Sequence record: AH001321.2
DNA: 540 nucleotides
Origin: a phage
Direction: 5' to 3' (one strand)
Of this stretch, positions 14-540 are shown piece after piece; position 1 is the stretch's first letter; every line of letters begins with the position of its first letter. Both the position numbers and the translations under genes were made by a program. Under the pieces are notes generated by a model that searched no databases, was not told the DNA's origin, and worked only from the letters and a program-made list of their open reading frames with translations.

Positions 14-30
14 TTGAAGTACGAAAAAAA
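14..30 (+). repeat. Copy 1 of a TTGAAR-N-ACGAAAAA direct repeat
   Basis: Seen in sequence: ttgaagtacgaaaaaaa at 14-30, matching 158-174 apart from a 1-nt indel and one substitution. TTGAAG followed by CGCGAAAG recurs at 472-485. Confidence 0.4.
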
Positions 31-79
31 CCGGGAGGACATTGGATTATTCGGGATCTGATGGGATTAGATTTGGTGG

Positions 80-91
80 GGCTTGCAAGCC
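80..91. repeat. Perfect 12-bp palindrome GGCTTGCAAGCC
   Basis: Seen in sequence: ggcttgcaagcc at 80-91 is its own reverse complement. The flanking pair 79 G / 92 T breaks the symmetry. Function unknown; it could be a dimeric protein-binding site or a short hairpin. Confidence 0.45.
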
Positions 92-121
92 TGTAGTGCA
101 AATTTTAGTCCTTAATCAATG

Positions 122-132
122 AAACGCGAAAG
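122..132 (+). promoter_or_regulatory. Isolated copy of the AAACGCGAAAG motif, identical to the reverse complement of 514-524
   Basis: Seen in sequence: aaacgcgaaag at 122-132; reverse complement of 514-524 (ctttcgcgttt) is the same 11-mer. It shares the 8-mer CGCGAAAG with 478-485. Confidence 0.35.
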
Positions 133-157
133 ATAGTAAAAAATTGCTTTTGTTTCA

Positions 158-174
158 TTGAAAATACGAAAAAC
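158..174 (+). repeat. Copy 2 of a TTGAAR-N-ACGAAAAA direct repeat
   Basis: Seen in sequence: ttgaaaatacgaaaaac at 158-174; the 8-mer acgaaaaa (166-173) is identical to 21-28 and to the reverse complement of 522-529. Confidence 0.4.
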
Positions 175-220
175 AAAAACACTGCAAATCATTTCAATAA
201 CAGCTTCAAAAAACGTTCAA

Positions 221-320
221 NNNNNNNNNNNNNNNNNNNNNNNNNNNNNNNNNNNNNNNNNNNNNNNNNNNNNNNNNNNNNNNNNNNNNNNNNNNNNNNN
301 NNNNNNNNNNNNNNNNNNNN
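221..320. other. Assembly gap: run of exactly 100 N, true length and content unknown
   Basis: Seen directly: 100 consecutive n characters. A round 100-N block is the usual placeholder for a gap of unknown size in scaffolded assemblies (established convention). Confidence 0.96.
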
Positions 321-471
321 GTGGTACACAAATTTAATCAGTATCGCTACATCAGATTCCTGAACAAACGAGCAAGGAAGCGGCTAAATACCAAACTATT
401 CAAGGTTCAGGCATACCCTAAGTGATCCCCATGTAATGAATAAAAAGCAGTAATTAATACATCTGTTTCAT

Positions 472-530
472 TTGAAGCGCGAAAGCTAAAGTTTTCGCAT
501 TTATCGTGAAACGCTTTCGCGTTTTTCGTG
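472..530. promoter_or_regulatory. Putative cis-regulatory module: dense cluster of CGCGAAA / CACGAAA / TTTCGC motifs in both orientations, including a 17-bp direct repeat
   Basis: Seen in sequence: GCGCGAAAG at 477-485 (+); TTTTCGCA at 492-499 (minus-strand TGCGAAAA); TTTCGCG at 515-521 (minus-strand CGCGAAA); TTTTTCGTG at 522-530 (minus-strand CACGAAAAA). No ORF covers the region on either strand. Function is inferred only from motif density and repetition. Confidence 0.4.
492..530 (+). repeat. Two copies of a 17-bp direct repeat (consensus YTTTCGCRTTTWTCGTG) at 492-508 and 514-530, offset by 22 bp
   Basis: Seen in sequence: ttttcgcatttatcgtg (492-508) versus ctttcgcgtttttcgtg (514-530), 14 of 17 positions identical by hand alignment. 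The second copy ends 10 bp before the window edge, so further copies downstream cannot be excluded. Confidence 0.55.
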
Positions 531-540
531 CGCCGCTTCA

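Follow-up and report, generated by a model that had tools for sequence, protein, structure and literature searches.

The 540-base window, by which we mean the whole stretch of DNA analysed here, is almost certainly composed of the two ends of the transposable bacteriophage Mu, the left (attL) and the right (attR), with a spacer of 100 N between them that replaces about 36.3 kb. On this reading, the motif shared by the two flanks is the inner core, AARYRCGAAAR, of MuA end-type sites, whose mechanism of action is taken from the literature. We found no evidence contradicting an explanation by Mu ends. These ends of Mu, with their six MuA sites, are already known and are textbook biology; since they have served as a transposition model system from the 1980s onwards, the window holds nothing biologically new. 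It does illustrate that a real protein-binding motif can be recovered from 440 bases by reading without tools.

Identity of the two flanks and the N run

Comparison with a phage collection places window bases 1–220 on bases 1–220 of phage Mu (NC_000929) and window bases 321–540 on Mu 36498–36717, i.e. its last 220 bases, with 219 of 220 positions identical in each flank. These matches to the Mu termini hold for both records of the phage, NC_000929 and AF083977 (36,717 bp). The window opens with TG and closes with CA, the terminal dinucleotides of Mu, and its run of N at 221–320 is exactly 100 long. The following parts are assigned from the sequence and its alignment to Mu and related phages:

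1–2, no strand: left terminal dinucleotide 5′-TG, on Mu genome base 1; it complements the bottom-strand 3′-CA exposed by MuA (chemistry: PMC3562280)
6–27, plus strand: L1, matched as a MuA end-type site (TGATTCACTTGAAGTACGAAAA); consensus at 11–27 with 0 mismatches; 5 bp from the left terminus
28–110, no strand: L1–L2 spacer of 83 bp, with a direct repeat (32–49 and 52–69, family D5) inside
111–132, plus strand: L2, matched as a MuA end-type site (CTTAATCAATGAAACGCGAAAG); consensus at 116–132 with 1 mismatch; the weakest match
151–172, plus strand: L3, matched as a MuA end-type site (TGTTTCATTGAAAATACGAAAA); consensus at 156–172 with 1 mismatch; same position annotated in D108
221–320, no strand: run of 100 N, standing for Mu 221–36497 (36,277 bp)
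321–425, plus strand: 3′ end of mom, the last 34 codons and the TGA stop at 423–425 (Mu mom CDS 35877–36602)
464–485, plus strand: R3, matched as a MuA end-type site (TGTTTCATTTGAAGCGCGAAAG); consensus at 469–485 with 0 mismatches; orientation opposite to R1 and R2
492–513, minus strand: R2, matched as a MuA end-type site (CGTTTCACGATAAATGCGAAAA on the minus strand); consensus at 492–508 with 1 mismatch; equivalent position annotated in D108
514–535, minus strand: R1, matched as a MuA end-type site (CGGCGCACGAAAAACGCGAAAG on the minus strand); consensus at 514–530 with 0 mismatches; equivalent position annotated in D108
539–540, no strand: right terminal dinucleotide CA-3′, ending on base 36717, the last of the 36,717-bp Mu record; the end for MuA cleavage and strand transfer

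The sole meaningful reading frame of the window is the mom 3′ end at 321–425, all others being 25–26 aa long or passing through the N run, and a scan of the window for sigma-70 promoters found none. As the mom CDS of Mu ends at 36602, its end corresponds to window base 425.

Two substitutions are private to the window. At base 111, the outer edge of L2, it has C instead of the G found in Mu and in all relatives. At base 411 it has G instead of the C of Mu; the resulting Pro-to-Ala exchange, four codons ahead of the stop, is the only departure of the translated 3′ end from Mu Mom. Exact scans of viral_contigs and genome_contigs found 111 C and 411 G in no other record searched; the reference base, used as a positive control in the same kind of scan, was recovered from 5 IMG/VR contigs. 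Likewise, no record in the phage, plasmid and E. coli collections is 100% identical to the window flanks.

Between the flanks, reference Mu carries 55 annotated phage genes. This interior contains the repressor gene c, ner, the transposase gene A, gene B, the enhancer/operator region and the central gyrase site, followed by the structural genes, the G segment, gin, com and most of mom. Genes A (Mup03, 1328–3319) and B (3358–4296) are annotated in the reference, the enhancer is not annotated there and is placed by its published position (PMC3145075), and for all of these the window has N. The layout of 220 bases, 100 N and 220 bases starts on Mu base 1, ends on the last base and cuts mom at an arbitrary codon. 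Such symmetry points to a single linear record whose two termini were joined by a spacer rather than to a sequencing gap.

The arrangement of the flanks in bacterial genomes is that of a transposon. In E. coli W, B-766, S17-1 and ST18, they span 36,717 bp end to end in the same orientation, and in E. coli W a 5-bp duplication, GCGGC, lies on each side. CP088505.1 holds an independent, SfMu-like insertion with CTTCC on each side. In both E. coli W and CP088505.1, host DNA thus adjoins the two terminal dinucleotides via 5-bp target duplications. Insertion contexts are varied, with malG, mhpC, a tetA-like gene and traX among them.

The N run would have to be understood differently if the window represented an actual mini-Mu, either an engineered one or a natural, non-autonomous one, with 220-bp left and right ends around a short unsequenced cargo and a true gap of unknown size. 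Mini-Mus with only end segments, such as mini-Mu(LR) and mini-Mu(LER), have been widely built and used (PMC3145075), and the two private substitutions might be the signature of a construct or of a divergent isolate. Yet, among 5,426 complete E. coli genomes and 72,556 plasmids, no record carries both flanks within about 770 bp, and the symmetric 220/100/220 layout with its arbitrarily cut mom frame looks more like the outcome of mechanical trimming of a full-length record than like a cloning junction. We therefore regard a mini-Mu as unlikely; were the window one, the identity of the motifs as MuA sites would be unaffected, and the gap alone would take on another meaning. Considerably less credible again is a natural non-autonomous mini-Mu in which a short segment lies between full left and right ends, the private substitutions are real and a resident Mu-like prophage mobilises the element in trans, much as for a MITE.

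The shared core and its six sites

The likeness between the flanks was first described in an earlier note, made from the letters of the window alone, which listed two 8-mers on both sides of the N run. All of its motif coordinates are correct: ACGAAAAA lies at 21–28 and 166–173 on the plus strand and at 522–529 on the minus strand, and CGCGAAAG lies at 125–132 and 478–485 on the plus strand and at 514–521 on the minus strand. Both occur far above chance, with three copies each versus 0.09 (ACGAAAAA) and 0.01 (CGCGAAAG) expected and with 0 of 200 shuffles reaching three in either case; the shuffles take in the N run and the expected counts are thus approximate, but given the size of the motif excess this makes no difference. 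The two 8-mers are the main variants of one core, AARYRCGAAAR, which is found six times (0.01 expected), at 17–27, 122–132, 162–172 and 475–485 on the plus strand and at 492–502 and 514–524 on the minus strand. The copy at 492–502 (AAATGCGAAAA), overlooked in the earlier note, constitutes the core of site R2.

Not every copy of an 8-mer stands for a core in the same register. The minus-strand ACGAAAAA at 522–529 is out of register with the copies in L1 and L3, being located in the half of R1 that faces the terminus; the inner core of R1 is the adjoining CGCGAAAG at 514–521. R1 accordingly carries two abutting 9-mers of the form RYRCGAAAR, one of which, at 523–531 on the minus strand, is the seventh RYRCGAAAR of the window.

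The hexamer TTGAAR, said in the earlier note to precede the motif, does occur at 14–19, 158–163 and 472–477, but two further minus-strand copies, at 192–197 and 204–209, have no adjoining core. Its enrichment is weak to marginal: five copies face 1.57 expected, and 3 of 200 shuffles reach five. Nor does it keep a fixed register, since L3 differs by 1 nt from L1 and R3 in the interval between hexamer and core, and since L2, R1 and R2 lack the hexamer altogether. TTGAAR was therefore rejected as a separate motif and is better described as part of the variable outer portion in three of the six sites.

A description of the site comes from the GenBank record of the Mu relative D108, which annotates at both ends a ‘transposase-binding site based upon homology to Mu consensus YMyNwRAARYRCGAAAR’. 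Scanning the window with this consensus and allowing up to two mismatches returned six sites and no others, three per flank and each with at most one mismatch. Judged by sequence, these six are the MuA end-type sites of the window. The boundaries of the 22-bp sites beyond the 17-nt consensus were set from an alignment of the six sites together with the published footprints and are taken as an assumption.

In the left flank, L1, L2 and L3 all lie on the plus strand and are separated by spacers of 83 and 18 bp. L1 includes TTGAAG as well as ACGAAAAA, and 20 of its 22 columns (91%) are invariant in Mu, D108 and SfMu. In the same three phages, 72 of the 83 columns of the L1–L2 spacer (87%) are invariant; this spacer may also contain the pac site. 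The outer half of L2 is shifted by 1 nt and fits poorly, and 77% of the L2 columns are invariant in the three phages. Its inner core at 122–132 is nevertheless the same in all six aligned sequences, window included. For L3, the invariant columns amount to 18 of 22 (82%).

In the right flank, R1 abuts R2, and 6 bp separate R2 from R3, which is inverted. The core of R3 is invariant in all relatives aligned. In R1, 21 of 22 columns are invariant across relatives, the exception being base 523, which is C in D108, PhiR68_1 and YpM_3. The two ends are consequently non-equivalent in the spacing and orientation of their sites, in agreement with the published description (PMC3562280); what they share is an offset of exactly 5 bp between the outermost site, L1 or R1, and its terminus.

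Overall identity among the left ends of Mu, D108 and SfMu is 83–84%, yet 31 of 33 core columns are invariant between them, while neighbouring stretches are less so (39% at 133–150 and 44% at 173–220). On the right, no variation is seen in the last 18 bases or in the R3, R2 and R1 cores, even though the D108 sequence upstream is entirely divergent.

Confinement to the genome ends and the proposed role

All six matches to AARYRCGAAAR in the whole 36,717-bp Mu genome fall within the terminal 220 + 220 bases. In the interior (221–36497, 36,277 bp), neither AARYRCGAAAR nor CGCGAAAG occurs, and ACGAAAAA occurs once. With a 22-nt matrix, the six sites are also the top six of the Mu genome, scoring 14.1–28.8 versus 10.7 for the next best position; the test is circular in part, since these six sites also went into building the matrix. 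R3 has the highest score of the genome, and L2, though the lowest of the six, still scores above every interior position.

This distribution bears on what the earlier note made of the N run. Its suggestion that a single module spans the gap holds insofar as the flanks are the two ends of one transposable element and share the site of one end-pairing protein; they are not parts of a repeat array. It had also expected more motif copies in the missing sequence and named a coding region without them as the finding that would speak against this. The reference interior, made up of phage genes, is such a region, and the prediction of extra copies therefore fails. The idea that repeat content had broken the assembly fares no better, given that the interior is unique coding sequence and that, wherever both flanks occur in the same orientation, they measure 36,717 bp from end to end. 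More generally, a run of N between flanks that share a motif need not be a collapsed repeat; here the termini of a single mobile element lie on either side of it.

At the right end, the same letters also offer a reading at the level of RNA, in which the copies act mainly as hairpins, i.e. as intrinsic terminators of mom, and their likeness to the left end is incidental. Two terminator-like hairpins (0.5 expected) are indeed present downstream of the mom stop at 423–425. They lie at 479–498 and 505–521, formed by the opposed cores of R3/R2 and R2/R1, respectively. An inverted repeat (I5) that pairs the R3 and R1 cores (475–486 with 513–524) would provide an alternative stem. However, hairpins leave unexplained the three copies at the left end, the identical 5-bp offset of L1 and R1 and the restriction of the motif to the genome ends, and Rfam covariance models gave 0 matches to the window at E-values up to 1. 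We have set this reading aside as the main explanation of the right end on account of the left-end copies and the motif restriction, and hold it to be very improbable; a secondary role of the hairpins in terminating mom may exist and would be compatible with the sites being MuA sites. The least tenable proposal, an iteron-like or tandem repeat array that continues through the gap and broke the assembly by repeat collapse, can draw on the strong over-representation of the motif family on both flanks but is practically discounted by the about 36.3 kb of phage genes between the flanks in every genome with both, by the irregular start-to-start spacing of the sites (105 and 40 on the left, 22 and 28 on the right) and by their mixed orientation.

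We thus return to the two ends of Mu. As described for the phage, each end has three MuA sites whose spacing and orientation differ between the ends (PMC3145075, PMC3562280). The motifs occur on both sides of the gap, with L1, L2 and L3 inverted relative to R1 and R2, because they define the extremities of one mobile element. According to the literature, each end site would be bound by one MuA monomer through its Iβ and Iγ domains, with bending of the DNA. During assembly of the transpososome, the L1–L2 spacer is bound and bent by HU (PMC3145075). An internal enhancer lies about 1 kb from the left end (PMC3145075), which in the window is inside the N run, and would bridge the ends through the Iα domain of MuA. 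The synapsed ends make up the transpososome, the stable core of which is a MuA tetramer (PMC3145075, PMC3562280).

At each end, MuA would then cut by hydrolysis directly behind the terminal CA, at a point 5 bp beyond L1 or R1. The 3′-OH groups so exposed attack the target DNA at a 5-bp stagger (PMC3145075, PMC3562280), and this staggered attack would give rise to the 5-bp target duplication. Both the duplications seen around the insertions and the 5-bp offset of L1 and R1 fit this mechanism from the literature. The sites do not contribute equally: L1, R1 and R2 are the critical ones, R3 is not needed in vivo and removal of L3 carries a cost of about tenfold (PMC3145075, PMC3562280, PMC1475752). 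In vitro, about 50 bp of the right end with R1 and R2 are enough as a donor (PMC1475752).

Comparison with known transposon ends

The closest counterpart of the window is the Mu attL/attR pair itself, whose MuA sites L1–L3 and R1–R3 go back to Craigie, Mizuuchi and Mizuuchi (1984), as cited in PMC3145075. Termini, six sites, spacing and orientation are the same, and the window differs in the G-to-C change at 111 and the C-to-G change at 411 alone. D108 and SfMu, of the genus Muvirus, have the same TG...CA termini, the same positions of L1–L3 and R1–R3 and near-invariant cores. In the D108 record, four of the sites are annotated as transposase-binding. Between mom and R3, D108 carries an additional gene, 56, and its right end therefore diverges upstream of R3.

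A shortened form of the right end is familiar from the laboratory. The 50-bp Mu end with R1 and R2, used for MuA transposition in vitro and for transposome library preparation, is exactly the segment at 491–540 of the window, and an oligonucleotide of this 50-bp sequence has been used to load the Mu transposase (PMC5517011). The natural Mu ends have L1–L3 and R3 as well, and their function in vivo depends on the enhancer, on HU and on supercoiling (PMC3145075). The final 50 bases of the window are thus a common laboratory reagent sequence, one that seems to persist untrimmed in public assemblies of unrelated organisms.

Finally, the ends of Tn7-family elements offer a parallel in function. Their site sequence differs from that of Mu, and Tn7 moves by cut-and-paste. 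As far as the descriptions in these sources go, Tn7-family ends resemble those of Mu in being asymmetric and in carrying several copies of one transposase repeat (PMC9308760, bioRxiv 10.64898/2026.07.09.737429), but they are bound by TnsB (PMC9308760), making this a functional analogy by description and not a case of shared membership.

Conserved features of the two Mu ends

The spacer between the MuA transposase sites L1 and L2 (window 28-110) is 87% invariant among Mu, D108 and SfMu, a level of conservation equal to that of the MuA sites themselves, and it contains an imperfect direct repeat:

32-49 and 52-69: imperfect direct repeat in the L1-L2 spacer, CGGGAGGACATTGGATTA and CGGGATCTGATGGGATTA

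HU binding lacks sequence specificity and would not on its own demand a conserved spacer or the repeat within it. The Mu pac site may map to this same spacer.

At the right end, the opposed cores of adjacent MuA sites give rise to two terminator-like hairpins, both downstream of the mom stop codon (423-425):

479-498: terminator-like hairpin from the opposed R3 and R2 cores
505-521: terminator-like hairpin from the opposed R2 and R1 cores

These hairpins may additionally serve as the mom terminator. Elsewhere in the Mu genome (L014), the 22-nt end-site matrix built from six sites scored highest at 31967-31988 and 35003-35024, i.e. at the inverted repeats that bound the G segment and are the sites of Gin action. 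These repeats score 10.7, compared with 14.1-28.8 at true MuA sites, and the matches are probably due to chance.

Two bases private to the window

The window departs at two positions from all of the relatives compared, namely Mu, D108, SfMu, PhiR68_1 and YpM_3 as well as the prophages of E. coli W, B-766 and HBUT-L. Position 111, at the outer edge of L2, is C instead of G, and position 411 is G instead of C, the latter replacing a conserved proline in the tail of the Mom protein by alanine (VQPYPK to VQAYPK). Both substitutions are G/C swaps, and they are spaced exactly 300 nt apart. Exact scans of viral and genome contigs returned no match for either the 111 C or the 411 G variant; with the reference version as query, an exact scan matched five IMG/VR contigs. 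The private bases may represent genuine variation, errors or changes made on purpose.

Mu ends in other sequence records

The terminal 50 bp (window 491-540), comprising R2, R1 and the terminal CA, recur with 100% identity in Proteus phage vB_PmiA_PM1, an unrelated member of the Autographiviridae:

PQ065999.1 42010-42059 (1501-1550 of the Proteus phage locus L009): 50-bp Mu end copy

Directly ahead of this copy stand ...tttgggtgtttaacc and 24 nt. The same 50 bp are also present close to record ends in plasmids of Streptomyces, Borrelia and Acinetobacter, and an oligonucleotide of this sequence is listed for loading Mu transposase (PMC5517011). The copies in public assemblies look like untrimmed sequencing adaptor from MuA transposomes.

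In the RP4-integrant donor strains E. coli S17-1 (NZ_CP040667.1) and ST18 (NZ_CP060709.1), a full Mu copy of 36,717 bp (loci L010-L013) lies between a truncated mhpC and a truncated tetA-like MFS transporter gene and lacks a simple target duplication, the arrangement expected of Mu-mediated replicon fusion (a cointegrate). In E. coli HBUT-L (NZ_CP104442.1), where the flanks occupy three places in the record, the left one, at 389,020 (+), is oriented oppositely to the right one, which lies ~559 kb away at 947,998 (-), a layout that suggests rearrangement between Mu copies.

Finally, the deposited 'complete genome' of Yersinia phage vB_YpM_3 (MT374852.1) carries 108 bp ahead of Mu base 1 (L020 1-108) and a bacterial dtd gene beyond the right terminus (L019 231-321). 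Mu-like phages take up host DNA at both ends through headful packaging (PMC5557969), and the extra DNA at the ends of this record is consistent with such packaged host DNA.
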